A stretch of DNA of 64,000 nucleotides from the NCBI GenBank assembly GCA_047639555.1, contig JBLIOE010000019.1, positions 714-64,713 on the forward strand, given 5' to 3'. The notes beneath the pieces were generated by a model. The model was not told where the DNA came from. It did no database searches and was given only the letters and a program-made list of their open reading frames with translations. A program made the translations under genes and the position numbers. Below are positions 6,729 through 24,500 of the stretch, piece after piece. Every line of letters begins with the position of its first letter. Within the stretch, counting starts at the first letter, position 1. The DNA comes from Candidatus Aldehydirespiratoraceae bacterium. GTDB taxonomy: Bacteria; Actinomycetota; Acidimicrobiia; Acidimicrobiales; Aldehydirespiratoraceae.

Positions 6729-7370
6729 ATGAGCGAGGAGTTCGGTCTCGATGAGGCCTATGCGGTGGAGACACCGGAGGACAACAAGCGTCTGTACGCC
6801 GCTTGGGCCGCCACCTACGACGAGGGCTTCCTTGTGAGCACGGGGTATATCTACGCCCGCGGCGTGGCGGCGATGTTCGCGGCCGACGGGTCTGGGCCGG
6901 TTCTCGATATCGGCTGCGGTACTGGCGCCGTCGGCATCGGGCTCGCCGCGCTCAACGTCGGGCCAGTGGACGGTGTCGACATCTCGACCGAGATGGTGGA
7001 GGTCGCGAGGTCGAAGCGCCTTGAGGATCAGGTGGTCTATCGAGATCTGTTCGTGGGAGATCTCACGGCCGGTCTCTCAATCCCCGATGGCGCGTACACC
7101 GGGGTCGTGAGCGCGGGCACGTTCACCCACGGCCACCTCGGCCCCGAAGTCCTGCCGGAAGTTGTGCGGGTTGGCGCGCCGGGCTGTCGCTTTGCCATCG
7201 GCGTGAACGCCCAGCACTACAAGACGCGCGGATTCGCGTCGACTCTCGAAGGTTTGGTTGCCGCTGGGCGAATCACCAACCTCACTTCCGACGACGTGGC
7301 GATCTACGAGAACAACACCACCGCGCACGGGCAGGATCGCGCGCTCGTGGTGCGGTTCATCAAACCGTAG
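6729..7370 (+). CDS. Class I SAM-dependent methyltransferase
   Basis: VLDIGCGTGAVGIGLA (motif I). The ATG at 6729 gives MSEEFGL. The upstream part of track ORF 6363.. is antisense to the oxidoreductase. Confidence 0.75.
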   Translation: MSEEFGLDEAYAVETPEDNKRLYAAWAATYDEGFLVSTGYIYARGVAAMFAADGSGPVLDIGCGTGAVGIGLAALNVGPVDGVDISTEMVEVARSKRLEDQVVYRDLFVGDLTAGLSIPDGAYTGVVSAGTFTHGHLGPEVLPEVVRVGAPGCRFAIGVNAQHYKTRGFASTLEGLVAAGRITNLTSDDVAIYENNTTAHGQDRALVVRFIKP

Positions 7371-7403
7371 GGTCCGCTGCGTCGCGGCCCGTACGATGAC
7401 CCC

Positions 7404-9182
7404 ATGAGTGACGGTGTGCCTACCCACCTCCGCGTGGCGATCTGCCAGATCAACACCATCGTTGGCGACCTCGACGGCAACGTGGCGCTAGCGCTCGAAG
7501 CGCTGGCGGAGGCCGAAGAGGCCGGTGCTGATGTCGCGGTGATGCCGGAGATGACCATCACCGGCTATCCGCCGGAGGACCTCGTACTCAAACCCGGGTT
7601 CGTGGCCGACTGTCGGGTCGCGCTCGAAAAGTTCGTGGCCCATACCGGCCGCTGTGCGGTTGTGATCGGGTTTGCCGATGGTGACGATGCGCCGGGCCGA
7701 GTGGTGCAAGACGTGGCGGGTGTCGATCACTTCAACGGCGTGTGGAACGCCGTGGCCATCTGTGCGGAGGGTCAGGTCTTCGGCACGTATCACAAACGCC
7801 ATCTCCCGAATTACGACGTCTTTGATGAGCTGCGTCACTTCCGACCCGGGGCTGAGGCGCTTGCGCTCTACGAGATCGCCGGCGTCCCGGTCGGCGTGAC
7901 CCTGTGCGAAGACTCCTGGATTCCCGAGGGCCCGGTTACCCAGTTGGCCCGCGGCGGCGCCCGCCTCGTGCTCAACGTGAACGGATCGCCGTTTCGCGAG
8001 GGAAAGCAGCAGGTACGCGAAGAAGTCATTGCCGAACGAGTCCGAGAGGCGGGAGTGCCCGTCGTCTACGCCAACCTCGTCGGCGGTCAGGACGAGCTCG
8101 TCTTCGACGGCGGATCGTTCGTAATCGCAGGCGACCGCGACGGCACGGCCGTCGTCGCCCGGTGCAACTCGTTTGCCGCCGGCACCGATGTCTTCGATAT
8201 CGAACTTCCGGCGGTGCAACCAACGATCGATCAGTACCCGATCGTGTCGGTGACCGCGGCGGCCTCTGGCCCTCGGAACCTGATCCCCGCCCCGATGGTG
8301 CCGCCGCTCGACGCGCTGGCTGAACGCTGGGAAGCACTCACGCTCGCCACCCGCGACTATGTCCGCAAGTCGGGCTTCGCCAAGGTGTGTCTCGGCATCT
8401 CCGGTGGCGTCGATTCCTCGCTCACCGCGGCGATCGCCGTTGATGCGCTTGGGCGCAACAACGTCCACGGCATTCTCCTGCCGTCTCGCTACTCGTCGGA
8501 CCACTCGCTCGACGATGCGTATGCCCTCGCCAAGAACCTCGGTATCGAGACATCGACCATCCCCATCGAGCCGGCCCACGCCGCACTGGCCGAGATGTTG
8601 CTGCCCCACGTGAGCGACGGCGCCATCGAAGTGGGCGACCTCACCGATCAGAACCTGCAAGCGCGGATCCGCGGCGTGGTGTGGATGGCGATGTCCAACG
8701 AACACGGCTGGCTCGCGCTCACGGCCGGCAACAAATCCGAGGCCGCGGTGGGTTACTCCACGCTCTACGGCGACACCGCCGGTGCGTTCGCGGTCATCAA
8801 GGATGTCTGGAAGCTGTCGGTCTACGAGTTGGGCCGCTGGCGCAACCAGGTTGCAATGATGGAGACCGGTTCCGTGGTCATCCCTGAAGGGGTCCTCACC
8901 AAGGCACCTTCAGCCGAACTGCGCCCGGGACAAACCGACGATCAATCGCTGCCGCCTTATGAGGTGCTCGATCCGATCCTGAAGGCGTACATCGAAGAAG
9001 ACTTCACCGTTGCCGAACTCATCGCGACCGAGGTCGCTGCGCCCGACGTCATCGAACGCATCTGCCGCCTGGTCGATATCGCTGAATTCAAGCGTCGTCA
9101 GACCCCGCTGGGTGCCCGTCTTACGAAGAAAGCGTTCGGCCGGGATCGACGCATGCCCATTGTGAACCGCTACCGCGGCTAA
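7404..9182 (+). CDS. nadE: Glutamine-dependent NAD+ synthetase (N-terminal CN-hydrolase domain plus NAD synthetase domain)
   Basis: Nitrilase-type N-terminus (LRVAICQINTIVGDLDGN...MPEMTITGYPPEDL...TLCEDSW). PP-loop domain (GISGGVDSSLTAAIA...TAGNKSEAAVGYSTLYGD). Confidence 0.9.
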   Translation: MSDGVPTHLRVAICQINTIVGDLDGNVALALEALAEAEEAGADVAVMPEMTITGYPPEDLVLKPGFVADCRVALEKFVAHTGRCAVVIGFADGDDAPGRVVQDVAGVDHFNGVWNAVAICAEGQVFGTYHKRHLPNYDVFDELRHFRPGAEALALYEIAGVPVGVTLCEDSWIPEGPVTQLARGGARLVLNVNGSPFREGKQQVREEVIAERVREAGVPVVYANLVGGQDELVFDGGSFVIAGDRDGTAVVARCNSFAAGTDVFDIELPAVQPTIDQYPIVSVTAAASGPRNLIPAPMVPPLDALAERWEALTLATRDYVRKSGFAKVCLGISGGVDSSLTAAIAVDALGRNNVHGILLPSRYSSDHSLDDAYALAKNLGIETSTIPIEPAHAALAEMLLPHVSDGAIEVGDLTDQNLQARIRGVVWMAMSNEHGWLALTAGNKSEAAVGYSTLYGDTAGAFAVIKDVWKLSVYELGRWRNQVAMMETGSVVIPEGVLTKAPSAELRPGQTDDQSLPPYEVLDPILKAYIEEDFTVAELIATEVAAPDVIERICRLVDIAEFKRRQTPLGARLTKKAFGRDRRMPIVNRYRG

Positions 9183-9807: not shown

Positions 9808-10012
9808 GCGCGGCGGTAGGTCCTTCGACTCAACTCTTGGAATGTCAGCCTCCAGTTCCTTATGATTGGTGTGGAATACGCCGATCATCGGGAGGCACAG
9901 CGTGCTTCGAGCGATAGACAGCTCGATACAATACGCGAACCTGTCGGTGGTGGAATCGCCATCGCTCGGTATCGTGCAAACAGCTAGCCGGTATCGACGA
10001 GAGGGCAACTCT

Positions 10013-10951
<939 letters not shown>

Positions 10952-10988
10952 AAATCTGAGAGGCGCTGACGCGTCTTGTATTTGTTGG

Positions 10989-11020
10989 AAAAGCGTCCCT
11001 GCGGGGACGCTTTTCTGCGT
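10989..11020 (+). terminator. Rho-independent terminator after the sigma factor gene
   Basis: AAAAGCGTCCC-TGCG-GGGACGCTTTT perfect hairpin followed by a T-rich tract. Confidence 0.65.
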
Positions 11021-11059
11021 TTGGGGATGGATGCCGCTGACTGCTGTCAGACTCCGGGC

Positions 11060-11950
11060 ATGAACACGCTGCGAGTTGTGACGTTGAATGTTGGTTCGTT
11101 GTTTGAACCGCACTGGGAGCGTCGGGCCCCTCGGATTGCCCGTGCGCTGGCTGCGCTCGAACCCGATGTGGTGTGTCTGCAGGAGATCGCCGACTCGTCG
11201 GGGCGGCCGAACGCGGCGCAGGAGATCGTCGATGCGATCGGTGATCATGGAGGTGATCTGACCAATCTCGTTTACGGCGGCCTGCCGATGGTCGAGGGTC
11301 TCTATCCGGACGAACCCGACCTCCAGTTTGGGTCCGCCGTGCTTTCGCGGTTCCCGGTAGAGCTGGTGGCGACCCACGCCTTGCCCGTCGACGGTGAGGG
11401 CACTCGCGCTTCCACGATGGGCTGGGAGTTGGTGCATGCCCGCACCGCCGGTCTCGACATTTTCTCGACACATCTGTGCGCGGCGCCGACCGATGCCAAC
11501 CATCGCCGGGTGCAGGTGCAGGAGATCAATCGACTGATCCAGGAGACTCGCACGGAGGTGGACACCGACGTGTGGTCTCCGGATCGCCCGGAGATGCCCC
11601 CGATCCTCTGCGGCGATTTCAACGCCGAGCCCGACAGCGACGAGATCCGCTTCCTATGCGGGTTGACCCCACTGGGCGGCGTCGACACCTTCTACCAGGA
11701 TTCGTGGAGAGTGGCCGCCGATGGTTCGGTCGGTCACACGAACGACTGGGCAAACCCCTTCGGCGGGAACCTCAATGTCCATCGAAAGCGGATCGACTAC
11801 GTGTTCGTCGGTGATCCGTTTCTACGGCGAGGAAGCGGTGGCCGAGTAATCGAAGCCCATGTGGTCCTCGACGAGGAGGTCGACGGGGTGCCGCTCAGCG
11901 ACCATCTCGGAGTGATGGCGCTGATCGCGTGGCCTAACTCGCCGGGATGA
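11060..11950 (+). CDS. Endonuclease/exonuclease/phosphatase (EEP) family protein
   Basis: LRVVTLNVGSL...PDVVCLQE...GDFNAEPDSDE...IDYVFV...SDHLGV is the EEP catalytic motif series. Start MNTLRV at 11060. Confidence 0.75.
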   Translation: MNTLRVVTLNVGSLFEPHWERRAPRIARALAALEPDVVCLQEIADSSGRPNAAQEIVDAIGDHGGDLTNLVYGGLPMVEGLYPDEPDLQFGSAVLSRFPVELVATHALPVDGEGTRASTMGWELVHARTAGLDIFSTHLCAAPTDANHRRVQVQEINRLIQETRTEVDTDVWSPDRPEMPPILCGDFNAEPDSDEIRFLCGLTPLGGVDTFYQDSWRVAADGSVGHTNDWANPFGGNLNVHRKRIDYVFVGDPFLRRGSGGRVIEAHVVLDEEVDGVPLSDHLGVMALIAWPNSPG

Positions 11951-13493
11951 GGCAGCTAACTGGTGGGGTGCCGTCGACGCCGAGAAGTTCGAGTTCGATG
12001 GGGCCCGCCTGAATCCGCACACGGTCGCCGGGGTTCAATCGCCGAGCGGACGATCGATTGTCGCCCTCGACCACGAAGAGGCGCGCGGCTCGCTCAATGA
12101 CGATCGTTGTCCCACGCTCGACTTCTTGGCGCCATATTCCGGCCTCGCTCTTGTCCTCACAGGTGCCGTCGCTGGTGTCGCTCGTCGTAAGCGCGAGTGA
12201 CGCATCGGCGTTCAGCACTGTGAGCGGCGCCGCGTCGATTGGCAGGTCGGGAAGGGCGCCCGCAGCGAGCTCCCGACGCAGCCATGCCACTCGCACCTCT
12301 TGGAAGAGCAAGGGTTCGAGGTCACCGGGTGCCTGGTCGAGGTAGGGCGAATGGGCCACGGCCAAGACCAGATCACGATTGCCAGTGGTGAACGGACCGC
12401 GATTGCGGAGCTGATCGGCGTTGTCGGGCATGGCGAGCGCAACGACAACAAGCGGCACGAGCACGAACGGCTTACGAAGCGTCCATAGCTTTTGCGCGCC
12501 GATAGCGATGATGGGCAAGAGGAGCGCCGCGCAGACGTGCATGTAACGACCGATTCCCGCGGTGCCGGCGATATCCACGCCGAAACCGCTGCGATTGAAA
12601 CCGGTGAGCGAGGCGAAGGCGATCGCCGCGGTGAGAAGTCCGACTGGAATGGCAAGCGGTCGAATGTTGCCCGACTCACGCCACTTCGCGAATGCGGTCC
12701 ACATGCCGAGTGCCGCGATGAGCATGAGGATGACTCCGCCAATCGTGCTTTGGCCGATTCCTTCGAACGCTTGGCGAATCATGTGGAAGGCGAACTGTGC
12801 AATCCGCCAGGGCTGCGGGTCGGAGTCTTCGGCGCCGCCGTAGGCCATCCACCACAGGCCGAATACGACGGCAGGTGGCACGGTGTGAGCGGCCGCGACT
12901 CGCCAGCCGCGATTGAGCAGAACAAAGGCACCAACGCCGACGCTCAGCGCCGGCATGACGGCACTTGTCATCAGCCCAAGGACGGCGATCGACACCCCCA
13001 GGGTGTCGCGCCGAGACCAGGCACCCTTGTGGTCGGCAAGGACGAATTGGGCAAGACCAGCAATGACCGAGCCGTTGAGCGTGATCTGGAACGCGAACAA
13101 GATGTTGCCCCAGCCAGCTCCAAGGAAGACGAAGGCGACAAGGAGACCGGTTGCGATCCATGCACGGACGCCCGCCCGCCGCATGAGCATGTGCATGAGC
13201 CCGGCGATGGTCAGGTGCGAGAGGATCACGAGGATCTGATACGGCACGTATGAATGCAGCCCGAACAGCTCATAGTTCACGCGATAGAGGACCAGCGGGA
13301 TCGTGACCCAGTGTCCGTTGTGATTCCCGAAGAGCCCGGCGCCGGACGGCAACTTCCGATTGGCGATGAAGGACCATTCGTCACTGCCGAACCATTGGCC
13401 GTCACCCCACACCAACAAGATTGGAAACGCGAGAATCAGGAGCGCCAGCGCGGCGTAGACGCCGTTGGTGTCAGCACCGAACCGTGCCTTCAT
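11934..13493 (-). CDS. Polytopic membrane protein, GT-C-like glycosyltransferase candidate with C-terminal extracytoplasmic domain
   Basis: About 10-12 TM helices. Acidic motif FGSDEW in the first predicted loop, typical of GT-C enzymes. The last ~130 aa are soluble. ATGA overlap with the upstream GT2 gene. Function is inferred from topology and context only. Confidence 0.55.
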   Translation of the reverse strand: MKARFGADTNGVYAALALLILAFPILLVWGDGQWFGSDEWSFIANRKLPSGAGLFGNHNGHWVTIPLVLYRVNYELFGLHSYVPYQILVILSHLTIAGLMHMLMRRAGVRAWIATGLLVAFVFLGAGWGNILFAFQITLNGSVIAGLAQFVLADHKGAWSRRDTLGVSIAVLGLMTSAVMPALSVGVGAFVLLNRGWRVAAAHTVPPAVVFGLWWMAYGGAEDSDPQPWRIAQFAFHMIRQAFEGIGQSTIGGVILMLIAALGMWTAFAKWRESGNIRPLAIPVGLLTAAIAFASLTGFNRSGFGVDIAGTAGIGRYMHVCAALLLPIIAIGAQKLWTLRKPFVLVPLVVVALAMPDNADQLRNRGPFTTGNRDLVLAVAHSPYLDQAPGDLEPLLFQEVRVAWLRRELAAGALPDLPIDAAPLTVLNADASLALTTSDTSDGTCEDKSEAGIWRQEVERGTTIVIERAARLFVVEGDNRSSARRLNPGDRVRIQAGPIELELLGVDGTPPVSCLIPAS

Positions 13494-14269
13494 GAGTTGC
13501 CCGTTTCGTCGTGGTAGGAGCGCTCGCCAGACTCGGGGAGCTGGTAGTTCTCGCTGAAGATTCGTCGACGGGTGCGCAACATGTCGGCGATCGTCTTGCG
13601 GATGTTGGCGACCGATGTGGAGCCGCCGCGCCCAATTTCGCGCGGGAAGGTTTGGATGCCCACCTCGCCGACCGGGTACCCCATCAGCATTGTTTTGATC
13701 GTGATCTCGGCGCCGATGAACGGGCTTGTTGCGGTGAGATTGAGCTTGTCGACGACATCCTTTTTGACCAAACGAAGCCCAGTACTGATGTCTCGATAGT
13801 CGGTATGGAACAGGCGGCGGAGCACGCGATTGTAGACCCGCGAAATGAACACCCGCATTCCGGAGTAGCGGCGTACGTAACGAAATGTGATGACGAGACC
13901 GTAGTGGTTTCGGAGCCGCCAGAGCTTCTTGAGATCGTGGAGGTCGTACTCATCGTCGCCGTCGGTGAAGCAGATCCATGTGTTGTTGCTCGCCGCGAGG
14001 CCCGTGCGGACGGCCGCGCCGTAGCCAAGGTTGGTCTCATGGTGAATGGCCGTCACCCGCTCGTTGTTGGCTGCGAGTTCGTCGGCAAGCTCACCCGATC
14101 GGTCCGGACTACCGTCGTTGACAATCAGGATTTCGTAGTCGTCGGTGAGGAACTCGCAGACCTGGATGGCCTTGTGCGTCACCCGTTCGATGGTGTGTTC
14201 GTCGTTGTAGACGGGGAAGAAAACCGTCAACGAGTCGGGCCGGTCGTCGGAGCGGCGGTGCATGTTCAT
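13490..14269 (-). CDS. GT2-family polyprenyl-phosphate glycosyltransferase (DPM1/Ppm1/GtrB-like, soluble)
   Basis: VFFPVYNDEHTIERV...ILIVNDGSPDRSGELA...NLGYGAAVRTG...FTDGDDEYD (DxD). No TM segment. ATGA overlaps at both ends. Confidence 0.85.
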   Translation of the reverse strand: MNMHRRSDDRPDSLTVFFPVYNDEHTIERVTHKAIQVCEFLTDDYEILIVNDGSPDRSGELADELAANNERVTAIHHETNLGYGAAVRTGLAASNNTWICFTDGDDEYDLHDLKKLWRLRNHYGLVITFRYVRRYSGMRVFISRVYNRVLRRLFHTDYRDISTGLRLVKKDVVDKLNLTATSPFIGAEITIKTMLMGYPVGEVGIQTFPREIGRGGSTSVANIRKTIADMLRTRRRIFSENYQLPESGERSYHDETGNS

Positions 14270-14997
14270 CAGAAGTCCAACCGGTTGTAGATTTGCGACG
14301 GAAGAATTTGCAGGCCCCGAACAATGGGGCTCCAGTAGCGGGGTTCAAAGACGGTGCGAGACCGCCCGCCGAGACCAGAGATCACCCGGGCGGCCACCTT
14401 CTTCGGGTCGGCTGGCTTCAGCTTCAGATCGCCCTGAGCGAGCCGTGTGTCGACATACCCCAAGCGGTAGAGGTGCACGGCGGCGCCGCTTCGGCCCAGT
14501 CGGTGCTGCATGGATCCGGCGAACGACTCGAGGCCCGCCTTCGCGGCTGCGTAGGCCACGTTGTTACGCCGCGGCGCGCCCGCCGCGATGGACGAAAACA
14601 GCACCAGGGTGCCGGCATCGGCCGTCTCGAACTCGATTGCGTAGTGACCGGCGAGCTTCATCACGCCCGTCATGTTGTTCGTCACGAGCGTGCTTGTGGT
14701 GGCCCAGTCGGTTGTGCCCTCGTCGATGGCCGAAACGCTGCCGGCCGTAATGATGACCGCGCTTGGGTTGGTCGCGGCTTGAGCGATGAAGTGAGTCAAC
14801 GAGTTGTCGTCGCTCACATCGACGGCGATTGGCGTGACCGAGCCCGCTCCTGCTTCTACAAGCGGTGCGACGAGAGCATCGAGGTCGTCCTGGTTCCGTG
14901 AACCAATCACCAGGTCCCAACCGGCGGCGGCAAGACCTTCGGCAATCGCCAGCCCAACCCCCGCGCTCGCTCCAACAACGATTGCCTTCTTAGACAT
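14269..14997 (-). CDS. Short-chain dehydrogenase/reductase, DprE2-like by context
   Basis: KKAIVVGASAGVGLAIA (TGxxxGxG-type) and YAAAKAGLESF (YxxxK). Three in-frame ATGs at 15027/15012/14997 come from a 15-bp tandem repeat; 14997 was chosen because AGGAG lies 4 nt upstream. Confidence 0.75.
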   Translation of the reverse strand: MSKKAIVVGASAGVGLAIAEGLAAAGWDLVIGSRNQDDLDALVAPLVEAGAGSVTPIAVDVSDDNSLTHFIAQAATNPSAVIITAGSVSAIDEGTTDWATTSTLVTNNMTGVMKLAGHYAIEFETADAGTLVLFSSIAAGAPRRNNVAYAAAKAGLESFAGSMQHRLGRSGAAVHLYRLGYVDTRLAQGDLKLKPADPKKVAARVISGLGGRSRTVFEPRYWSPIVRGLQILPSQIYNRLDF

Positions 14998-15031
14998 TGC
15001 ACTCCTAGACATCGCTCTCCTAGACATCGAT
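14987..15031. repeat. 15-bp tandem repeat x3 encoding (MS[RK][RSK]A)3 at the SDR start, overlapping the upstream gene stop
   Basis: The minus strand reads ATGTCTAGGAGagcg ATGTCTAGGAGtgca ATGTCTAAGAAggca. Each unit carries an ATG, and the first two units carry an AGGAG that serves as SD for the next ATG. Confidence 0.9.
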
Positions 15032-16333
15032 CCGCCTTCGTAGTGCGCTGTCAATTCGGCGATGCGGGTCGTGAGCGGCGAGCTCCGCCTTGAAACCTTC
15101 GTAGCCGGGGAATACCCGTGCCGAAGTGGCTGCGGTGATTCGGCTGTCCTTCGCGAGGTTCACGGCGCCGCCCATCGTTGCCGCGAGCTGATCGAGCCCG
15201 GCGAACAGGGCCAACGTGCGGGCGTTGGCGGGACCATCGAGAGTGAGACACACGCCATCGCCGATGAACCACATGTGCTTGCGGTCGCCACGAAACAGCT
15301 TCAGCGATGTGAGCGGAATGGTCGCCTTGGTCGACGCGATCAGAGAGCGGACTTCCTCGACAGCCTCGGACCAGCGATCCCGCGGAATGATCATCTGATA
15401 TTCGCGGAAACCCGGCCGACCGAAAGCGTGGAAGTAGCCCTCCTTGCCGTTGATCGGAAAGGCCGCATCGAGCACACCCATGGTGCGCGTCGGACGGCGA
15501 CTCTCGAGCGCGAAATAGGCGCCGTTGACAAGCGAAGTGGTGAGACGAGTCCAGCCAGAGAAGGGAAGTAGACGACCCCGACGTTCGGGTCGCAACACTC
15601 GATACCGCTGACCTGACGATGCGGGCGCGTCAACGAATCGCTCCTCGTAAACGACCCCGCGCCCGAAGTGTTTGCCGCGGCGATTGCCGTCGTTCCATGA
15701 GTAGACGTGGGATTCGTCGCCCGAACGGTCTTCCATGATCTCGACCGCGTCGACGAGATCTCGCGCCCGATGCGCGGTGCGCGAGATCGCACCGCCTCGA
15801 AGTGGTTGTACACGAAGGGTGACATCGACGATCCAACCGGTGAGGCCCATGCCTCCAACGGTGAGCAAGAACAGCTCGGCATTGTCAGACGGGCTACACA
15901 CGATCTCACCGTGGTCGCGATGTATCAGCGTGAACGACTCGACGTAGTCGACCATCTGTCCGATGTCGTGCTGAGTCTTCCCGTGGGTGTTGAACGCCAC
16001 ACATCCGCCGACTGTGATCTCGGGATGGCCGGGTAGCACGGGAAACCAACGATCGAGCGACACGAGATGACGCACGAGCGCGCCGACCGTGAGACCGGTT
16101 TCGACTCGGATGGTGTTGGCTTCGGCGTCAAAGTCGAGGATGCGGTCGAGTCCGCGCATGCTTACGGACGGCGACTTGGGACTGCCGCTCGCAAGGCAGT
16201 AGGAGAGCCCGCTGCCGCGAATGGCGAGCTGGTCGTGCGCGTCAACAAGGGCGCGGAGCTGTTTGCGATTCGTAGGTCGATGGACCTCGGACTCGCTGCG
16301 CTCCGTGCCATCGAAGCTGATCAGCGTGCTCAT
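15020..16333 (-). CDS. FAD-linked oxidase, DprE1-like (decaprenylphosphoryl-sugar 2'-oxidase family)
   Basis: By-eye alignment to my recollection of Mtb DprE1: FPVLPGHPEITVGGCVAFNTHGKTQH, ELFLLTVGGMGLTGWIVDVTLRV, GFREYQMIIP, GGAVNLAKDSRITAATSARVFP. Similar length (437 aa). Confidence 0.75.
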   Translation of the reverse strand: MSTLISFDGTERSESEVHRPTNRKQLRALVDAHDQLAIRGSGLSYCLASGSPKSPSVSMRGLDRILDFDAEANTIRVETGLTVGALVRHLVSLDRWFPVLPGHPEITVGGCVAFNTHGKTQHDIGQMVDYVESFTLIHRDHGEIVCSPSDNAELFLLTVGGMGLTGWIVDVTLRVQPLRGGAISRTAHRARDLVDAVEIMEDRSGDESHVYSWNDGNRRGKHFGRGVVYEERFVDAPASSGQRYRVLRPERRGRLLPFSGWTRLTTSLVNGAYFALESRRPTRTMGVLDAAFPINGKEGYFHAFGRPGFREYQMIIPRDRWSEAVEEVRSLIASTKATIPLTSLKLFRGDRKHMWFIGDGVCLTLDGPANARTLALFAGLDQLAATMGGAVNLAKDSRITAATSARVFPGYEGFKAELAAHDPHRRIDSALRRRIDV

Positions 16334-16348
16334 CGAAGTCGATGCGAA

Positions 16349-17023
16349 TTAGGCATCAGCAGGCTTCTGGACGACAACGAGAAACTGCTTTCCGAGCACT
16401 CGCCACGCCGGTCGGAACTTCAAATACAGGCGAACGAAGAGGCTCGGGGGCGGAGGTTTATCCGCCATCGTGAACGGCAAGAACCGCCCGTAGATGGTCT
16501 CGGGGGTGAAGCCGACGAGCTCGGTAACTTCGGCGAGGCTTGCCTCAGTGAGCGGCACGTAGTGATCGAAGAAGTCCCAATACGCACCGCCGACAAACTT
16601 GATGTTCGGACCCATGAGTACGAGGCGGCCACCCGGACGGAGGCAGCGATAAGCCTCGTCGAGCGTGCGCCGCACGGCGTCGCGGTCGGGGAGATGCTCG
16701 AGGAAATTGCTGCTGAACACCAGGTCGAGGGATGTGTCAGCGAGCGGCCAGGTGGCATCGGCCGCTTGTTCGAACAATGTGACCCCGGCGTCGAGATGGT
16801 TGATCGCATCCGGGTTGAGGTCGATTCCGTATCGATTGGCGACGTCGATCTGGTTAATGAACGGCCCCCAGCCGCAGCCGAGATCGAGAACGTCGTTGGC
16901 ATCGGTGAGATAGCGACCGAACCAGGCGTCGATGAGGACGCGCCAGACTCTCTGGCGCGTCGCGTCCTCCGCCTCGAAGCGGCGGCGGTATTGGTCGTCG
17001 AGTTGGTCGCCTGGACTGGACAC
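16349..17023 (-). CDS. Class I SAM-dependent methyltransferase (first gene of the glycan operon)
   Basis: VLDLGCGWGPF (motif I) and LRPGGRLVLMGPN. GTG start at 17023. Confidence 0.8.
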   Translation of the reverse strand: MSSPGDQLDDQYRRRFEAEDATRQRVWRVLIDAWFGRYLTDANDVLDLGCGWGPFINQIDVANRYGIDLNPDAINHLDAGVTLFEQAADATWPLADTSLDLVFSSNFLEHLPDRDAVRRTLDEAYRCLRPGGRLVLMGPNIKFVGGAYWDFFDHYVPLTEASLAEVTELVGFTPETIYGRFLPFTMADKPPPPSLFVRLYLKFRPAWRVLGKQFLVVVQKPADA

Positions 17024-17095
17024 GAGAAACGACGTTACCGCCCATGGTGCTGAGCGGACAGGGGCGGACGACCCATGGCCACGTTGGGCAACCTA

Positions 17096-17191
17096 TGGCG
17101 GAGGTGGACGGGAATCGAACCCGCCGGACAGGGATCACCCATCCCACCCGCTTTGAAGGCGGGGGAGCCCACCAGGCGCTCGGACACCTCC
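17096..17191 (-). tRNA. selC: tRNA with UCA anticodon and long variable arm: tRNA-Sec (selC) candidate
   Basis: The reverse complement is GGAGGTGTCCGAGCGCCTGGTGGGCTCCCCCGCCTTCAAAGCGGGTGGGATGGGTGATCCCTGTCCGGCGGGTTCGATTCCCGTCCACCTCCGCCA (96 nt, encoded CCA). Anticodon stem CCCGC/GCGGG with loop CTTCAAA, identical to the E. coli selC loop. G73 discriminator. 13 stacked positions in the acceptor plus T arm (7 bp + U-C + 5 bp, or 7+6). 5-bp variable stem. The D-arm looks Ser-like (4 bp). Confidence 0.7.
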
Positions 17192-17346
17192 ACTGGTGAC
17201 GTTATCGGGGCGCGGAGACATCCCGGGTTGGTCTGGCTACGGTCAAGACATGTCGAAGAACCGTCTTGTCCTCATCGCTGTTCTGGTTGTCTTGTTGGGC
17301 GTGCTCGCCCGCAAGGTCAAGGACGTCTGACCAACACCAGCGAGCG

Positions 17347-18174
17347 TTAGAACGGCCAGCGCCGTTTCGGTGCCTGCGACCGAAGGCGCCACCAGAACGC
17401 CAAACCCGCCGCGAGGCCGAGCCCCAAAGCTCCGGCCCCGACTGTCGCTGGCTTCGGCGCGGCGATCGAACCTTCTCGCAAAGGGCGTGGGTTTTCGAAG
17501 GTTCGGATTTCCCAGCCTCGTGCCTCGGCTTCCTTGAGCAGTGCCCGGTCCGGGTTGACGGCCACTGGGTGACCAACCGCTTCGAGCATCGGGAGATCGG
17601 TGACGGAGTCGGAATAGGCGAACGATCGGTCCAGCGCCAGGCCATATGTGTCGCGCTCGCGTTCGATGGCTTCCACCTTGTGAATGCCGGCCGAATAGAA
17701 CTCGACTTCGCCGGTGTAACGACCGTCGGCATCGATACGCGCCCGGGTGGCGATGGCATCGTCGACCCCGAGGTGACGGGCAAGCGGCATCACGATCTCT
17801 TCGGGCGAAGCCGAGACGAGGTACACCCGTCGGCCAGCGTCTCGATGCGACTGCATGAGCTCGAGGGCCTCGGCGTAGACCAGCGGATCGATCACATCGC
17901 TGAGGGCGTTGTCGACGAGGGCAGAGATCTTGTCCTTCTCCCAGCCAACCGCGATCTTCAATGCGGTCTCTCGCATCTTCTCCATGCGGCCTTCGTCGGC
18001 GCCGAGGTAGCGAAAGACGATCTGTCCCCAGAGCGCGCGGGCCACCATCCATCGGTTGAGTAGGCCCGCCTGTTGGAGGCGGGGCCCAAACGCGAGCATG
18101 GCGGCTTTCGCGATGACCGTTTTGTCGAGGTCGAAGAAGGCGGCCTCGACGGATTCGGGGGTGGGCGGCGCCAT
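17347..18174 (-). CDS. HAD-IB family hydrolase (SerB-like phosphatase) with C-terminal membrane anchor
   Basis: AAFFDLDKTVI (DxDxT), YLVSASPEEI, FAYSDSVTDLPMLEAVGHPVAVNPD. C-terminal TM VGAGALGLGLAAGLAFWW. Occupies the same position as the HAD gene next to the mycobacterial tad/ssd locus. Confidence 0.85.
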   Translation of the reverse strand: MAPPTPESVEAAFFDLDKTVIAKAAMLAFGPRLQQAGLLNRWMVARALWGQIVFRYLGADEGRMEKMRETALKIAVGWEKDKISALVDNALSDVIDPLVYAEALELMQSHRDAGRRVYLVSASPEEIVMPLARHLGVDDAIATRARIDADGRYTGEVEFYSAGIHKVEAIERERDTYGLALDRSFAYSDSVTDLPMLEAVGHPVAVNPDRALLKEAEARGWEIRTFENPRPLREGSIAAPKPATVGAGALGLGLAAGLAFWWRLRSQAPKRRWPF

Positions 18175-18327
18175 CAGGTGAGCTTAGGGAGGAGACGGAG
18201 CGCGAACGTGGCGGCTACAGAAGCTTGGGCCCGACGGCAGGCGCCCCGGGCGAGTCTCTCCGACGATTCCGATATGGCGACACCGCAGGCGCGGAGGTTG
18301 GGACTGTCACCGGGCCCGCCTATGGTC

Positions 18328-18380
18328 GAACCAACGACTTCCCCGTCGAGCAAAAGACTTCCCCGTCGAGTCGATTGTTC
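18328..18380 (+). ncRNA. Twin direct repeats forming two small hairpins with UUCCCC loops inside a closing stem; 6C-sRNA-like element or tandem operator
   Basis: GACTTCCCCGTCGAG occurs at 18336-18350 and 18356-18370 (20-bp period). Each contains (C)GAC-TTCCCC-GTC(G). Flanking GAA(C)CAA/TTGTTC can close the structure. It lies 12 nt upstream of the tadZ-like GTG. The stems are short, so this is tentative. Confidence 0.25.
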
Positions 18381-18391
18381 CGGGAGTTGTT

Positions 18392-19033
18392 GTGTTGACC
18401 GTGTGTTTCACGCCGAAGGGCGGTGCCGGTGGTTCCGTTGTTGCCGCCGCGCTGGCGTTGCAAGTAGCGGCGAGTGGTCGGCCGTGCCTACTCGTCGACC
18501 TGGCCGGTGATCTCGCGGCGGTCCTTGGTGTCGCCGAGGACGACGGCGTCAGCGACTGGATAGCGGCGGCCGATGATGTGCCGATCGATGCGCTGCGAGC
18601 GCTTGAGACGCCGGTGGTCGAGCACCTTCGCCTGCTCCCGTACGGCAACGCAGCGGCCGCCGATTGGTCCGAAGACCGACGTCAGCTCGCGATCTCAGTT
18701 CTCGCGGCGAGCGCCACCTCCGTGATCGTTGATGCGGGTACAGGCCCGCGCTGGTGGCCGGAACAGGCGACCACTATTGCCGTCGTGCGTTCGTGTTACC
18801 TGGGCGTCCGCCGACTCACCGCCGCTGTGCATCCGGCTGATCACATCGTGGTCGTAGAGGAGGCCGGCCGCGTTCTTCGGCGGCGAGACATCGAGGAGGC
18901 GATCGGTCGGCCGGCTTTGGCTATTCCGTGGGACCCGGCCGTGGCCCGAGCCGTCGACGCGGGTCTGCTGGCCCATCGTCTTCCACGGTCACTGCGAGGT
19001 CTGCGCCCATTGCTCGATCGAGGCGTCGCATGA
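18392..19033 (+). CDS. TadZ/CpaE/Ssd-like ParA-family protein with degenerate Walker A
   Basis: FTPKGGAGGSVVAAALA sits where MinD/ParA proteins have KGGxGK[ST]; the P-loop Lys is replaced by Gly. First gene of the tad operon. ATGA overlap with tadA. Confidence 0.7.
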   Translation: MLTVCFTPKGGAGGSVVAAALALQVAASGRPCLLVDLAGDLAAVLGVAEDDGVSDWIAAADDVPIDALRALETPVVEHLRLLPYGNAAAADWSEDRRQLAISVLAASATSVIVDAGTGPRWWPEQATTIAVVRSCYLGVRRLTAAVHPADHIVVVEEAGRVLRRRDIEEAIGRPALAIPWDPAVARAVDAGLLAHRLPRSLRGLRPLLDRGVA

Positions 19034-20055
19034 TCGACGAGCAGCTGGTCGCCCGAGTCCATCGCCGGGTGGTGAACGAAGATCGAGTTGATGAGGTGGC
19101 CGCAGTTGTGGCGTTGGAGTCACCCTTGTTGTCGTCGACCGATCGCGACCGCGCGGTGCAAGAAGTGGAAGCCCGGCTGCACGGGCTGGGTCCGCTCGAA
19201 CTGCTCATGGCGGATCCAACGGTCACCGAAATCATGGCCAACGGACCCGGTGTGGTCTGGGTGGAGCGAGCGGGCGCGGTCGAACCGACTGACACCACGC
19301 TCGATGCTCGTGAGCTGATGGCGGTGATCGAACGAGCACTGTCGGGGGTCGGTCGCCGTATCGATCCGCTGCGCCCGTGGGTCGACGCTCGGCTGCCGGA
19401 TGGGAGTCGAGTCAATGTGGTCGCCGGCCCTATCGCCGTCGACGGTCCCTACCTCACGATCCGCCGGTTCGGCTTGGTCAACCCGGAGCTGAGCGACTTC
19501 GCCTCGACCGCCGACGAACGGGCGCTCCGCAGCTTCGTCGAACGAGGCGACGCCGTGCTCATCAGCGGCGGAACCGGAGCGGGCAAGACCACCCTGCTGA
19601 ATGCGCTGGCCGGCTGCCTGGCCCCCGAACTGCGGGTCGTCACGGTTGAAGACGCGGCGGAGCTGGCGATTCCGTTGCCACATGTCGTGCGGATGGAGGG
19701 CCGCCCGCCGGGCATTGAAGGCGACGGAGAGGTGTCCACCCGCGATCTGGTTCGTACGGCGCTCCGCATGCGCCCGGATCGGCTGATTGTCGGCGAAGTC
19801 CGCGGCCCCGAGGCTTACGACCTTCTTCAGGCAATGCATACGGGGCATCGCGGCGGGATGTCCACCATCCATGCCAACTCACCACAGGACGCGCTTGATC
19901 GGCTGAGCACCCTCGTGCTGAGCGCGGGTATGGGCCTCGACCCCGGCGCGGTCGATCGTCAGATCCGTCGCGCCATCGACTGGGTCGTGCAGGTCGAGCG
20001 GCAGGCCAGTGGGCGTCGACGGGTGGTTTCCATGCTGGCTGTGGAGGCGATGTGA
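19030..20055 (+). CDS. tadA: Tad pilus secretion ATPase TadA/CpaF
   Basis: [33 protein letters not shown] (Walker A), [34 protein letters not shown]. Confidence 0.9.
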
Positions 20056-20627
20056 TCACGTGGAGAAAGCCGTCGGCCGGCGCGGCCGTGACGTGGCAGG
20101 TCGAACGTCTGCCAATGCTGTTGGACCGCCTGGCCCGCGAGATCCGGGGCGGGGGATCCTTGTTGCAGGCGCTGGCAACGGTCTCGAAGGATGATGTGCT
20201 GGCGGGATCGGCGTTGCGGGAGGCAATGCTCCGGGCGGAGCACGGCATGTCGGTAGTTGATGCCCTCGATGGGTGGGCCGAGGCACTGAACCATCGAGAC
20301 GCAGCCGTCGTTCGAGCCGTACTGGCAACGGGCCACACCGCTGGCGGCGGGCTGGCGAGCGCGCTCACGCGAGCGGCGATCAGCTTGCGCGATCGGGCGG
20401 CGGTCGAACGCGAGGTACGGGCGCTGTCGGCCCAGTCCCGCGCCTCGGCGATGGTGCTCACGGCCGCTCCAGTGATGTTCCTGGCGCTCTTTGGTGCGCT
20501 CAACCCGGCGGTCTTGGCGACCGCTGCCGGTTCGGGGCTGGGCCGTGTCTGTCTTCTCGGTGGCGCCCTTCTTGATGTCGCCGGTTGGCGCTGGATGATG
20601 GTGCTCGAGCGGCGGGTGCTGCGATGA
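20052..20627 (+). CDS. tadB: TadB-like type II secretion system F-domain membrane protein
   Basis: T2SSF-type layout with C-terminal TM helices. GTG start overlaps the tadA stop. Position in operon. Confidence 0.7.
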   Translation: MITWRKPSAGAAVTWQVERLPMLLDRLAREIRGGGSLLQALATVSKDDVLAGSALREAMLRAEHGMSVVDALDGWAEALNHRDAAVVRAVLATGHTAGGGLASALTRAAISLRDRAAVEREVRALSAQSRASAMVLTAAPVMFLALFGALNPAVLATAAGSGLGRVCLLGGALLDVAGWRWMMVLERRVLR

Positions 20628-21331
20628 GCGCGGGGATCGCGGTGTTGTGTGTGGCGGGAGCGCTCGCGCTGATGATTCGCCCGTGGTGGGCCCGGCCGCG
20701 CATGATTCACGCGCACCCAAGAGCCGCCGTGTCGCGCCCGTCCGGGATCGTGGCGGCGGGGCCGTTGTGGGGCGCGCTCGTGGTCGCCGGCTGGATGGTC
20801 CACCCGGTGCTCTCGTTGCTCATTCTGGTCGGCCCCAGCGTTCGTGAGCGGGCGGAACTCCGTCGGGTCTCCGGCGCGAGCGCTCGAGCGATTGTGAGCA
20901 CACTTCCCGAGGCCATCGACTTGATCGGGCTCGGGGTGGCGGCCGGCCTCGGGCCACGAGAGGCGCTTCTGACCAGTCACCGTTGGCTCCCTCACCCGTT
21001 CGCCGACGTGTTCGGCGAAGCGCTAAGACGAGCCGACGCGGGCGAGCCGCTCTCGGATGCGATCGATGTTGTTGCGCCCGCGCTCGGACACGAAGCCCAA
21101 GCCTTGTGTGTCGTGCTGAGCGGGGCGGAGCTGGCGGGAGGTGCCCTTGCGGCTGACCTCGTTCGGCTCGGTGATGATGCTCGGCGTGGTCGGCGCAGCG
21201 CCGCTGCAGCCCGAGCGCAGCGGCTCCCGGTGCAGATGCTCGCCCCTTTGGTGCTGTGTGTCTTGCCCGCTTTCGGTCTGGTCGCCGTTGTTCCCTTGCT
21301 TCTGACCGGCCTCGCCGACTTCGGCCTGTGA
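20624..21331 (+). CDS. tadC: TadC-like type II secretion system F-domain membrane protein
   Basis: N-terminal TM, T2SSF core (LPEAIDLIGLGVAAGLGPREAL), C-terminal TMs. ATGA overlap with tadB. Confidence 0.7.
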   Translation: MSAGIAVLCVAGALALMIRPWWARPRMIHAHPRAAVSRPSGIVAAGPLWGALVVAGWMVHPVLSLLILVGPSVRERAELRRVSGASARAIVSTLPEAIDLIGLGVAAGLGPREALLTSHRWLPHPFADVFGEALRRADAGEPLSDAIDVVAPALGHEAQALCVVLSGAELAGGALAADLVRLGDDARRGRRSAAAARAQRLPVQMLAPLVLCVLPAFGLVAVVPLLLTGLADFGL

Positions 21332-21383
21332 ACGCTCTTCCCCCGTCGCTTCCCCGCGTGATCAAAGCGAAAGAAGAGAATCC

Positions 21384-21605
21384 ATGAATCAAACAACAAT
21401 GCTGCGTATGTGGGTGGCCGCGGAGTCCGCGATGCGGACATCGCCACGGCTGCGAAACGACCGCGGCCAAGCCACGGCCGAATATGCCTTGGTCGTGCTC
21501 GGCGCGGCGGCGGTGGCAATGCTGCTCATCGCCTGGGCGACCAGCACCGGCAAGGTGTCGACCCTTCTGAACAAGGTGGTCGACTCGGTCGAGGATCGCA
21601 TCTAG
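21384..21605 (+). CDS. flp: Flp-type pilin (actinobacterial DUF4244-like)
   Basis: RGQATAEYALVVLGAAAVAMLLIAWA: the G/ATAEY processing motif followed by a hydrophobic helix. Confidence 0.75.
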   Translation: MNQTTMLRMWVAAESAMRTSPRLRNDRGQATAEYALVVLGAAAVAMLLIAWATSTGKVSTLLNKVVDSVEDRI

Positions 21606-21970
21606 TGATCCGCTCTGCCCGTGGTCAAGCGACGGTCGAGTTCGCCCTCGTTCTTCCGCTTCTCGCGCTCGTCGCGTTGGCGGTTGTTCAGGTTGCGGCG
21701 GTCGTCGACGATCGCGTGCAGCTCACCCACGCGGCGCGGGTTGGCGCCCGCGCTGCGTCGGTGGGGGCGACCGATCCTCAGGTCCGGGCCGACGTGGTGG
21801 CCGCCACAAGTCTCGACCCGTCGCGTCTCGATGTGCAGATCTCGCGATCGGGCCCGGCCGTCACGGTGACGGTTCGGTATCGCGCGGCAACCGGCACCCC
21901 AGTGGTCGGGGTGGTGCTCGCCGACGTGGAACTGAGCTCGACGGCTCGTATGCCCCGCGAGCCGCCGTGA
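21605..21970 (+). CDS. TadE-like pseudopilin
   Basis: GTG at 21605 gives VIRSARGQATVEFALVLPLLALVALAVVQVAAV, the TadE N-terminal motif. In frame with track ORF 21410..21970. Confidence 0.75.
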   Translation: MIRSARGQATVEFALVLPLLALVALAVVQVAAVVDDRVQLTHAARVGARAASVGATDPQVRADVVAATSLDPSRLDVQISRSGPAVTVTVRYRAATGTPVVGVVLADVELSSTARMPREPP

Positions 21971-22121
21971 GTTAGGTGGGGCGGAACTGGGCCGAGCGTC
22001 GTGTCGAAGCCGGGCGCCCGGTGACTTTGCTGATGATCTGCGCCCGGCATTCTGGGGTCTCTTGGGCTGAACGATTCAGAGACGTCGACCGAAAGGCCTA
22101 CTCTGGACCCGATCTTGCGGG

Positions 22122-24500
22122 TTAGCCGCCGAGAATCGCTCGAAGGAGCCGTGAGGCACCGATCTTGTCGAGCGGCTCGTTGCCATTGCCACATTTGGGC
22201 GACTGGACACATGACGGGCATCCGGCGACACAGCCGCAGGCATCGATGACATCGGCCGTGGCGCCGAGGTGGCGAGCCCCGGCCTCCCACCCCAGCTCGG
22301 CGATACCCGCACCGCCGGGGTAGGCGTCGTACACAAAAATCGTGGGGGCGCCGGTGTCGTCATGGTGGGCGGTGGACACCCCGCCGACATCCCATCGATC
22401 ACAGATGGTGAACAAGGGGAGCAGGCCGATCGCCGCGTGTTCGGCCGCGTGCAGAGTGCCGGCGATGTCGTCGCTGGCCGCGGCGACAAGGCCCGAATCG
22501 ACGGTGTACCAAAATGCTCGAGTGACGAGCCGCTGCTCGGGGAGGTCGAGGGTTTCGTTGGTGAGGATTTTTCGGGACCGAGTGTCGCGCAGCTGGTAGC
22601 CGGTCACTTGAGTGATCACTTCGACCGAACCGAGATGAAGCGTGGCCGCGCCAACGGTGCGGGTCTCGTCGACCTCAAGGACGCGGATGTCGGTGTTGCT
22701 GCGGGCCTGGGTGTAGTCCTTTCCGTCGGCCTCGACAACGCGGGCTTCTCGATCCTCGAGATCGAGGCGGACCACCTCGAAGGCGCGCCCTCGGTGGAGG
22801 TAGATCGCGCCGGTGTGGACCGACGAGTAGGCCCGGCTCTCATCGACGGTGCCGATCAGGCGTTGGGTGTCGTGATCAACGATTCGAATTTCGCCGGACG
22901 ACCCGGACCGGAGGCTGATGCCCCTCGACGGGTAGCCGGTGCCGCACCAATGAGCGAACGGTTCTTCGGTGCCGTTGCGCCAGCGGCGCCGGAGACGCAG
23001 GTGGTCGCTGCGGACAAGATCTCGCACCGCGTTGTGAAGCTCTTCTTCGCTCCACCAGCGAAGGTCGTCGTAGCTAATCGGCAGTTCGTAGGCGGCGCAC
23101 GCGAGATGGGGATTGAGGACGAAGGGGTTGTCGGTGTTGACCACGGATGGTTCGGGCGGGCGCGAGAACACTTCTTCGGGGTGGGCCATCAGGTAGCGGT
23201 CGAGCTGGTCGTCGCCCCCCACCATCACCGTGACGGAAGCACTCCCTCGGCGCCCGGCGCGCCCGGCCTGCTGCCACATCGACGCGATCGTGCCCGGGAA
23301 TCCGTTCATCACACACGCGTCGAGGCCGCCGATGTCGACGCCGAGTTCGAGGGCGGAGGTGGACACCACGCCGCGCAGGTTGCCGCCGAAGAGCTCGTGT
23401 TCGATCGCCCGCCGTTCCGCGGCGAGATACCCGCCTCGATAAGGCATGACCGAATCGCGGAGTGCGGCGGGTAGGCGTCGATTCACATCGGCCGCCACCA
23501 GCTCGGTGCCCTTCCGAGATCGGCAGAAGGTGATCGTGCGATGGCCGGAGGCGACCAGAGCGGCAGTGACCGACGCACATTCGGAGTTGGCCGACGAGCG
23601 AGCCCCACTTTCCTGGTCGACTACGGGTGGGTCGAGCAGGGCGAACCGTCGGGGCCCGGCGGGCGAACCGTCGTTGGTGACTGCGGTAACCGGCGCCGCA
23701 CACAGTGCCGATGCCAGCCGGGCCGGGTCGCCAATCGTGGCCGAGCAAAAGATGAAGGTGGGGTCGGCGCCATAGTGGCGACAGATGCGGCGGAGGCGCC
23801 GCAGGATATGAGCGACGTGGGTGCCGAATACACCGCGCAAGACGTGGAGCTCATCGATCACGACATATCGGAGTCGCATGAGTAGGGCATCCCACTTGAC
23901 GTGCCGGGGGAGCAGGCCACCGTGCAACATCTCCGGATTGGTGAGGAGCACGTTGGCGTGGACGCGGATCCACGCTTTCTCTTCGGCGCTCGCATCGCCG
24001 TCGTAGGCCCCGGCCACCAGCGCGGGGAAGTCGAGCGCGGTGAGGGCTCGCAGCTGATCGTGGGCGAGCGCCTTGGTGGGGTAGAGGATCAGCGCGGTGC
24101 CGGGCTTGATTGGATCGATCACTGCCTCGGCGATCGGCAGCTGGAAGCAGCGACTCTTTCCTGAAGCGGTGCCAGTGGCGATGACGACGTTTCCGCCATC
24201 TCTCGCCCGGTCAATCGCTTCGACTTGGTGGGTCCAAAGGGGAAGGTCGGTGACCCGGTGCTCGAGCGCGGTGGGCAGGGGCCGAGCGAGCGCACCGAAA
24301 CGCTCGACGCGCTCATCGAGATGTTCGATATGCACCAGCCGACCATCGTCGGTGAGCTCTTGCAGCAGCTCCTCGAAGGCCGGCGTGTGGGGGAGTGCTG
24401 GTGGTGCGAGTCGGAGGTTTGGCGCGTCGGCGATCGCGGGATCGGCCAGCCCGGAAGTCGACGGTGACTCGAGCGGCGTCGGCTCTGGAGCGAGCGCCAT
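22122..24500 (-). CDS. DEAD/DEAH-box helicase with C-terminal DUF1998 zinc domain (MrfA/YprA-like)
   Basis: VIATGTASGKSRCF (motif I), VIDELHVL (DExH), SALELGVDIGGLD, C-terminal CGCVAGCPSCVQSPKCGNGNEPLDK. Confidence 0.85.
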   Translation of the reverse strand: MALAPEPTPLESPSTSGLADPAIADAPNLRLAPPALPHTPAFEELLQELTDDGRLVHIEHLDERVERFGALARPLPTALEHRVTDLPLWTHQVEAIDRARDGGNVVIATGTASGKSRCFQLPIAEAVIDPIKPGTALILYPTKALAHDQLRALTALDFPALVAGAYDGDASAEEKAWIRVHANVLLTNPEMLHGGLLPRHVKWDALLMRLRYVVIDELHVLRGVFGTHVAHILRRLRRICRHYGADPTFIFCSATIGDPARLASALCAAPVTAVTNDGSPAGPRRFALLDPPVVDQESGARSSANSECASVTAALVASGHRTITFCRSRKGTELVAADVNRRLPAALRDSVMPYRGGYLAAERRAIEHELFGGNLRGVVSTSALELGVDIGGLDACVMNGFPGTIASMWQQAGRAGRRGSASVTVMVGGDDQLDRYLMAHPEEVFSRPPEPSVVNTDNPFVLNPHLACAAYELPISYDDLRWWSEEELHNAVRDLVRSDHLRLRRRWRNGTEEPFAHWCGTGYPSRGISLRSGSSGEIRIVDHDTQRLIGTVDESRAYSSVHTGAIYLHRGRAFEVVRLDLEDREARVVEADGKDYTQARSNTDIRVLEVDETRTVGAATLHLGSVEVITQVTGYQLRDTRSRKILTNETLDLPEQRLVTRAFWYTVDSGLVAAASDDIAGTLHAAEHAAIGLLPLFTICDRWDVGGVSTAHHDDTGAPTIFVYDAYPGGAGIAELGWEAGARHLGATADVIDACGCVAGCPSCVQSPKCGNGNEPLDKIGASRLLRAILGG

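Follow-up and report, generated by a model that had tools for sequence, protein, structure and literature searches.

A selenocysteine tRNA gene in the window

The window analysed here is a 64,000-nt stretch of contig JBLIOE010000019.1 (assembly GCA_047639555.1), assigned to a Candidatus Aldehydirespiratoraceae bacterium of the order Acidimicrobiales. A 96-nt tRNA gene is located on its minus strand at 17096-17191, with the 5' end at 17191, in the interval between a gene for a HAD-IB family hydrolase and a convergent sigma factor gene. ARAGORN calls this gene as tRNA-SeC with anticodon tca, and its identification as selC, the gene for the selenocysteine (Sec) tRNA, rests on ARAGORN, Rfam, the predicted fold and covariation among homologues. 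A first-pass annotation, made from the letters of the window, had reported a tRNA of this length at this place, with a UCA anticodon in the loop CUUCAAA, G73 and a long variable arm, and all of these features are borne out; the variable stem has 7 bp. It had also proposed a covariance-model comparison, in which the tRNA now scores 64.0 bits with the Rfam tRNA-Sec model (RF01852), above the gathering score of 47 (E = 1e-10). In competition within the Rfam tRNA clan the best model is tRNA-Sec and not the general tRNA model, and seven divergent homologues score 64-81 bits with RF01852. Direct support comes from the identity and structure of the tRNA, from purifying selection on it, from its fixed position in the genome and from the conserved -10 box, and we consider it very probable that 17096-17191 is the functional selC of its host, an uncultured marine bacterium of the order Acidimicrobiales.

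The minimum free energy (MFE) fold of the tRNA (-48.8 kcal/mol) reproduces a Sec-type layout throughout. From a 5' end that reads GGAGGUG, this layout comprises a 7-bp acceptor stem whose first pair is G1-C72, a 3-nt linker (U, C, C), the D-arm, a 5-bp anticodon stem with the loop CUUCAAA, a 7-bp variable stem with a 5-nt loop, a 6-bp T-stem (G-C, G.U, C-G, G-C, G-C, G-C), G73 and an encoded CCA. The anticodon loop, in which UCA is preceded by U33, is invariant in all 18 distinct homologues, and G73, which together with a long variable arm is an identity feature for SerRS, is likewise invariant among them. Presumably, E. coli tRNA-Sec has the same anticodon loop and the same T-stem start (G.U then C-G).

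Elongator tRNAs have 12 layers across the acceptor and T arms. Here the stack has 13, as the first-pass annotation had noticed and as the MFE fold (7 + 6) bears out, and it can be drawn either as 7 bp followed by a 6-bp T-stem or as 7 bp, a U.C opposition and 5 bp, with 8 nt lying between the 5-bp T-stem and G73. The extra layer is best drawn as a sixth T-stem pair (the 7/6 form) because the 8/5 drawing puts the U.C mismatch at the eighth layer.

In the MFE fold the D-arm consists of four pairs (GAGC/GCUC), one bulged G, two further pairs (CC/GG) and a UGGU tetraloop. The inner pairs, C16-G23 and C17-G22, close the tetraloop, and the Rfam alignment gives the same arrangement. These inner pairs are supported by the relative L075 (L-numbers denote homologous loci, L001-L086 being the first 86 and the later additions including 40 metagenome contigs), which has six uninterrupted D-stem pairs with U-A in place of C16-G23. 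Four of the six D-stem pairs covary, and the bulged purine is conserved. The first-pass reading of this arm as a Ser-like 4-bp stem with a 9-nt loop had overlooked the two inner C-G pairs and is contradicted by the Rfam alignment, by the MFE fold and by L075. With it falls the proposal of a hybrid Sec/Ser architecture, the D-arm being of the Sec type, with a 6-bp stem, one bulge and a 4-nt loop. A 6-bp D-stem with a 4-nt D-loop is a determinant for SelA, and a lengthened acceptor branch is the basis of EF-Tu rejection and SelB binding (PMC7609411).

The window selC belongs to a well-known family, and its layout is the actinobacterial 7/6 form reported for mycobacterial tRNA-Sec (PMC13449736, RNA Biol 2026). 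Like its mycobacterial counterpart, it combines a 7-bp acceptor stem with a 6-bp T-stem into 13 layers, and it begins with GGAGG (GGAGGCG in mycobacteria and L075, GGAGGUG in the window). G73, a CCA that is usually encoded, and a long variable arm are also common to the two, and in both the acceptor/D linker and the D-stem vary. The window-type tRNA is unlike it in the conserved bulged purine of the D-stem, and whereas mycobacterial selC is proposed to be co-transcribed with selA-selB (PMC13449736), the window selC stands alone with its own -10 box. With the canonical 8/5 tRNA-Sec of E. coli and Aquifex aeolicus (RF01852) it shares the 13 layers, the 6-bp-type D-stem, the 4-nt D-loop and the serylation elements (PMC7609411). 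It differs from that form in that the eighth acceptor 'pair' is U.C, the D-stem has one bulge, and the outermost (sixth) anticodon-stem position is C.U (C.C or C.A in some relatives), leaving five pairs. D-stem bulges (13a, Clostridiales), extra linker nucleotides (7a) and 7-bp acceptors, all seen here, have each been catalogued by Secmarker in genuine tRNA-Sec of Sec-using bacteria, although the 7-bp-acceptor variants in that catalogue have 12-bp stacks (PMC5330540) and the window tRNA keeps 13 layers. The 7/6 acceptor/T layout extends from mycobacteria to a second, deeply separated actinobacterial class.

Conservation, genomic position and predicted promoter

Searching species-representative genomes with the neighbouring HAD protein yielded 80 Acidimicrobiales metagenome-assembled genomes (MAGs). 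The window itself matches metagenome contigs only, and its best species-representative relative by HAD protein is DHS20C19, at 84% identity. A complete tRNA-SeC(tca) adjoins the HAD gene in 33 of the 80 related species (ARAGORN), two further copies are cut off by contig ends (profile search), and the tRNA is present in 13 of the 14 closest relatives. In 23 of the 80 species the HAD-sigma interval is intact, with neither a tRNA nor a decayed remnant found by profile search. Such a pattern of presence and absence is typical of a patchy Sec trait.

Wherever the tRNA is found together with both landmarks (48 of 48 loci), it lies between the HAD-IB gene and the convergent sigma gene, and 40 metagenome contigs match the 3' 63 nt of the tRNA exactly, with the same synteny wherever flanks are present. 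The upstream landmark is the HAD-IB family hydrolase gene (17347-18174, minus strand; Pfam PF12710; NCBIfam TIGR01490, 176 bits against a cut-off of 98). On the other side of selC, and convergent with it, is a conserved SigA/SigB-like group 1/2 sigma-70 gene (9866-10951, plus strand; Pfam r1_2, r2, r3 and r4; NCBIfam RpoD/SigB). The HAD gene is present in all 80 related loci regardless of the tRNA, so no functional link between it and selC is implied. Its identification as SerB was rejected (serB model, 35 bits against a cut-off of 144), and so was a role in Sec synthesis as a phosphoserine-type phosphatase, on account of that score and of the presence of the gene independently of the tRNA.

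At 100% identity, the tRNA is unchanged in relatives that have only 74-84% identity in the HAD protein, and its identity is 86-100% in all relatives except the most divergent, L075 (77%). The 120-nt flanks of the tRNA, at 46-75% identity, are essentially unrelated sequence. Over its full length, the tRNA of L098, from a genome of 44% GC, differs from the 70% GC tRNA of the window at 2 of 96 positions. Standard pairs fill 99.3% of the pair cells across the 18 distinct homologues, and both sides have changed in 13 of the 31 pairs; these 13 are in the D-stem, the anticodon stem, the variable stem (5 of 7 pairs) and, in one case, the acceptor stem. None of 500 shuffles paired as well as the observed alignment, and shifting the 3' partners by 1-3 columns lowered pairing to about 50%. 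Judged from these comparisons, purifying selection on the tRNA is strong.

Upstream of the tRNA nothing is conserved besides a TANNNT-type box, represented in the window by the predicted -10 hexamer TAACGT at 17199-17204 (minus strand; -13 to -8 from the mature 5' end). Of 34 distinct upstream regions, 26 have TANNNT exactly at -13 and three others have it one nucleotide away, at -12 or -14. The same offset is seen in L007-L083 and in L098, where the box is TATTGT, and it is kept in genomes from 44% to about 70% GC. The conservation of the box at -13 implies that the tRNA has its own predicted promoter and that its transcription would begin at +1 or at an adjacent nucleotide; such a start would leave little or no 5' leader for RNase P processing. 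A promoter scan around the tRNA with a consensus of the E. coli type found none, the box having been found by comparison. A terminator scan around the tRNA, which included the 72-nt spacer to the methyltransferase gene downstream, likewise found none.

A few further features of related loci may be mentioned here. In six species (L015-L020, GTDB Acidimicrobiales MAGs) the tRNA stays in its interval, with 34-57 nt between it and the sigma gene, and has the reverse orientation with respect to the HAD gene; it behaves in this respect as an independent module. Seven metagenome or MAG contigs (L002, L003, L005, L047, L071, L108 and L125) stop within the tRNA or just where it ends, which is what assembly-graph branching between strains differing beside selC would produce. 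Three of the 40 metagenome contigs (L098, L107 and L115), of 41-44% GC, carry the tRNA with its 3' 63 nt identical to those of the window; the HAD protein of these low-GC relatives is only 56% identical where its gene is on the contig, and the order HAD-selC-sigma-NadE is kept in L098 and L107.

Selenocysteine machinery and alternative explanations

Several observations weigh against the identification of a functional selC. The z-score of the single-sequence fold is modest (-2.1). The thirteenth pair of the stack, G67-C85, is invariant, so that covariation cannot confirm the extra layer, and if the stack is drawn as 8/5 the layer becomes a mismatch, U.C in the window and A.C in L075. The bulge in the D-stem departs from the textbook 6 bp. 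Moreover, a Pfam search found no SelA, SelB, SelD or molybdopterin formate dehydrogenase domain in the approximately 55 open reading frames (ORFs) spanning the 64 kb, and no sel genes were found beside the tRNA in related loci, over flanking stretches of at most some 10 kb.

Other searches for the Sec machinery gave the same result. Six-frame motif searches of the window and L001-L086 for SelA (DK[LMIV][LIFMV]GGPQ), SelD (G[C/*][GAS]CK) and SelB (GH[IV]DHGK[TS]) gave no match, nor did tblastn of E. coli SelA against 40 metagenome loci. In a set of 5.8 billion proteins, the matches listed for E. coli SelA were only Enterobacterales (top matches 99-100%), and no Acidimicrobiales SelA was reached. 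A codon-position GC screen for TGA-interrupted frames yielded three candidates, at 1811 (minus strand), 33961 (plus) and 42010 (plus), all of which Pfam resolved as separate neighbours: a zf-HC2 anti-sigma gene and a small ORF, an unknown gene and folB, and an L-PSP shadow frame. The ADH frame at 5583-7487, read as 136 aa, TGA and 498 aa, was rejected as an ordinary gene, since the ADH domain starts only at residue 160 of the downstream part. Elsewhere, a TGA-joined pair of ORFs in L040 is a TetR gene followed by a FAA hydrolase gene and not a selenoprotein gene, and a TGA-joined ORF in the L014 insert is a low-complexity antisense shadow. The first-pass annotation had noted no selA, selB, selD or obvious selenoprotein gene in the 64 kb; Pfam bears this out for the sel genes, and no candidate of the TGA-frame screen held up.

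The selC gene of E. coli is not linked to selAB or selD. To our knowledge, the Actinomarinales are the only Acidimicrobiia that have been studied for the positions of their sel genes. In that order selA, selB, selC and selD are found at dispersed positions (bioRxiv 10.64898/2026.04.03.716425). The absence of sel genes near selC carries little weight, because selC sits alone in the related loci and is dispersed from its partners in Actinomarinales and unlinked in E. coli. Actinomarina has about five selenoproteins per genome (bioRxiv 10.64898/2026.04.03.716425), and we estimate that far less than one selenoprotein gene would be expected in 64 kb. Within the Acidimicrobiales, a sponge-associated bin of 61.6% GC has the COGs for SelA and SelB, while a second, bin134, has neither (PMC5649159, Table S4). 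We infer that selA, selB and selD are probably present elsewhere in the genome of the window organism.

Taking the established bacterial Sec pathway as a guide, we hypothesize that the tRNA would be transcribed from its own promoter and serylated by SerRS through G73 and the long variable arm. SelA would then turn Ser into Sec with selenophosphate from SelD, reading the 6-bp-type D-stem and the 4-nt D-loop. The 13-layer acceptor/T stack would lead to rejection by EF-Tu, and SelB would bring the tRNA to in-frame UGA codons followed by a selenocysteine insertion sequence (SECIS) hairpin, the sel and selenoprotein genes lying elsewhere in the genome.

One alternative is that the gene is an orphan or relic, SelA, SelB and SelD having been lost and the tRNA now decaying or kept for some other reason. 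The lack of sel and selenoprotein genes in the window and in related flanks would fit such a history, as would the patchiness of the Sec trait in the Acidimicrobiales, where 23 relatives have no tRNA at this place and bin134 has neither SelA nor SelB. A relic would be expected to drift, however, and this tRNA is identical across species with scrambled flanks and nearly so in genomes of 41-44% GC. The compensatory changes and the conserved promoter box also speak against decay, and lineages without the tRNA show clean absence and no decayed copies; we therefore regard a relic as very unlikely. The gene might also be valued mainly as a landmark for recombination or integration, with translation a secondary role. 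In favour of this, the intervals flanking the tRNA, between 9 nt and 6.5 kb in length, contain cargo of unrelated kinds, six species have the tRNA in inverted orientation, and seven contigs stop in it or right after it. Against this, no integrase gene was found, nor any repeat of the tRNA 3' end at the far side of the 6.1-kb insertion described below, and an attachment site would need neither compensatory changes in four arms nor a conserved -10 box. Of the explanations considered, a landmark role is to our minds the least credible.

A decoder of UGA that works independently of SelB, whether a Ser-inserting opal suppressor, an allo-tRNA or a tRNA-Cys of the selC* type, would also carry a UCA anticodon, and G73 and a long variable arm are tRNA-Ser identity features as well; the acceptor helix proper, moreover, has only 7 Watson-Crick pairs. 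The fine structure points the other way. A tRNA-Ser has a 12-layer stack, a D-stem of 3-4 bp and a loop of 8-11 nt, as against 13 layers and a 4-nt D-loop here; the D-arm is of the Sec type, and tRNA-Sec is the best model in the Rfam clan. Genuine selC and a Ser-derived opal-decoding tRNA had both been offered in the first-pass annotation, and it is the former that the model score and the D-arm favour, at the expense of the latter. Allo-tRNAs of the 8/4 and 9/3 forms (PMC5389517) have a 12-bp branch with a longer acceptor stem and a shorter T-stem, compared with a T-stem of 5-6 bp and a total of 13 here. The selC* tRNA-Cys of Desulfobacterales has A1:U72 and an adjoining selB* or cysS* copy (PMC7609411), in place of which the window tRNA has G1-C72, G73 and HAD/sigma or methyltransferase neighbours. 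Since TGA is the commonest stop codon of the window and ends 20 of its 44 family-supported genes, general opal suppression would be costly, and neither a suppressor of that kind nor a reassigned UGA is likely. Taken together, a SelB-independent UGA decoder is highly improbable. The same holds for the broader notion that an invariant selC-type tRNA has been kept in the absence of SelA, SelB and SelD, for SelB-independent recoding of UGA or for a non-translational role, to which we give hardly any credence.

If the gene is a functional selC, as we believe, its presence means that an uncultured marine Acidimicrobiales lineage (about 61-68% GC, with relatives of 41-44% GC) almost certainly uses selenocysteine. 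Gene callers will therefore truncate the selenoprotein genes of this lineage at UGA.

Variable gene content beside selC and other features of the window

Downstream of the tRNA, the window carries a strain-specific insertion of 6.1 kb (10955-17049, genes on both strands) that is absent from L118 and L102. On the minus strand it holds a cluster of genes for a methyltransferase, a DprE1-like FAD oxidase, a DprE2-like SDR, a GT2 glycosyltransferase and a 519-aa protein (Pfam, NCBIfam), and on the plus strand a gene of the endonuclease/exonuclease/phosphatase family. The 519-aa protein has no family match in Pfam or NCBIfam and is presumed to be a membrane protein. To read the cluster as a glycan cluster is reasonable, because its genes are below-cut-off relatives of enzymes acting on polyprenyl-phospho-sugars. 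L118 and L102, with HAD, sigma and NadE proteins of 95-97% identity, lack the whole cluster, and the distance from the tRNA end to the sigma stop is 92 nt in these two (1792-1883 in L118) compared with 6148 nt in the window. Only the same-species contig L001 has the cluster complete, and no GTDB relative does; in L097, the sequence next to the tRNA partially matches two of the cluster genes (GT2 at 81%, the 519-aa protein at 60%). By-eye comparison places the proximal boundary of the insertion after a 3' trailer or spacer of about 45 nt (17050-17095, minus strand): the first 45 nt or so downstream of the tRNA are common to the window, L118 and L102, and the sequences then diverge. Neither an integrase nor an att-type repeat of the tRNA 3' end was found bounding the insertion.

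The first-pass annotation had noted that the tRNA is co-oriented with the glycan operon, and the methyltransferase gene (GTG at 17023) does indeed follow it after a spacer of exactly 72 nt. As a functional link, this adjacency does not hold: it is strain-specific and there is no conserved connection between selC and the glycan genes, because the cluster is an insertion missing from relatives that are 95-97% identical, and the tRNA has a predicted -10 box of its own. Co-transcription may occur in this particular strain, since no terminator was found in the spacer and read-through from the tRNA into the methyltransferase gene is possible there. A second TAACGT is present at 17032-17037 (minus strand), 8 nt upstream of the methyltransferase GTG. 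Given this motif, the glycan operon may have its own promoter and a leaderless first gene, and may not need read-through from selC. A false lead is thereby removed, in that we see no sign either of a Sec/Ser hybrid tRNA or of functional coupling between selC and the glycan genes.

Gaps beside selC in 48 loci range from 9 nt to 6.5 kb, with unrelated cargo on either side; in L040 and L024, for example, the cargo comprises aromatic-catabolism genes, regulators and acyl-CoA dehydrogenase genes, with no sel genes among them (Pfam). The HAD-selC-sigma interval looks like a hot spot for variation in gene content. A parallel to these variable inserts is offered by Actinomarina, a member of the same class, in which selC lies apart from selA and selD and in or beside a tRNA-bounded hypervariable region for envelope sugar decoration (bioRxiv 10.64898/2026.04.03.716425). 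The parallel concerns genomic setting; Actinomarina belongs to a different order, has genomes of 1.1 Mb and about 33% GC, and has had its Sec machinery demonstrated.

At the far end of the insertion, just after the sigma stop, positions 10989-11014 form a perfect GC-rich hairpin, AAAAGCGTCCC-CGCA-GGGACGCTTTT, flanked by runs of A and T, which looks like a bidirectional intrinsic terminator. Given where this hairpin lies, the endonuclease/exonuclease/phosphatase-family gene seems to start near 11060 and not at 10976. On the other side of the tRNA, between it and the HAD gene and on the opposite strand, a 26-codon ORF (17251-17331, plus strand) would encode the hydrophobic peptide MSKNRLVLIAVLVVLLGVLARKVKDV; its DNA is partly conserved in L118 and L102, and we regard it as a candidate gene only.

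Two further features of the window lie away from selC. Between folP and folB (41251-42009, plus strand) lies an ORF of some 200 codons that looks coding and matches no Pfam family; it ends in a TGA that abuts folB, the block folE-folP-folB-folK-panC-coaX-lysS-clpC-radA being otherwise standard for actinobacteria. The region from 18000 to 24000, finally, has a GC content of 66-69%, compared with about 63% elsewhere in the window, and carries Tad pilus genes (CpaE-like, TadA, two TadB/C and TadE-like) together with the start of a DEAD/MrfA-type helicase gene.

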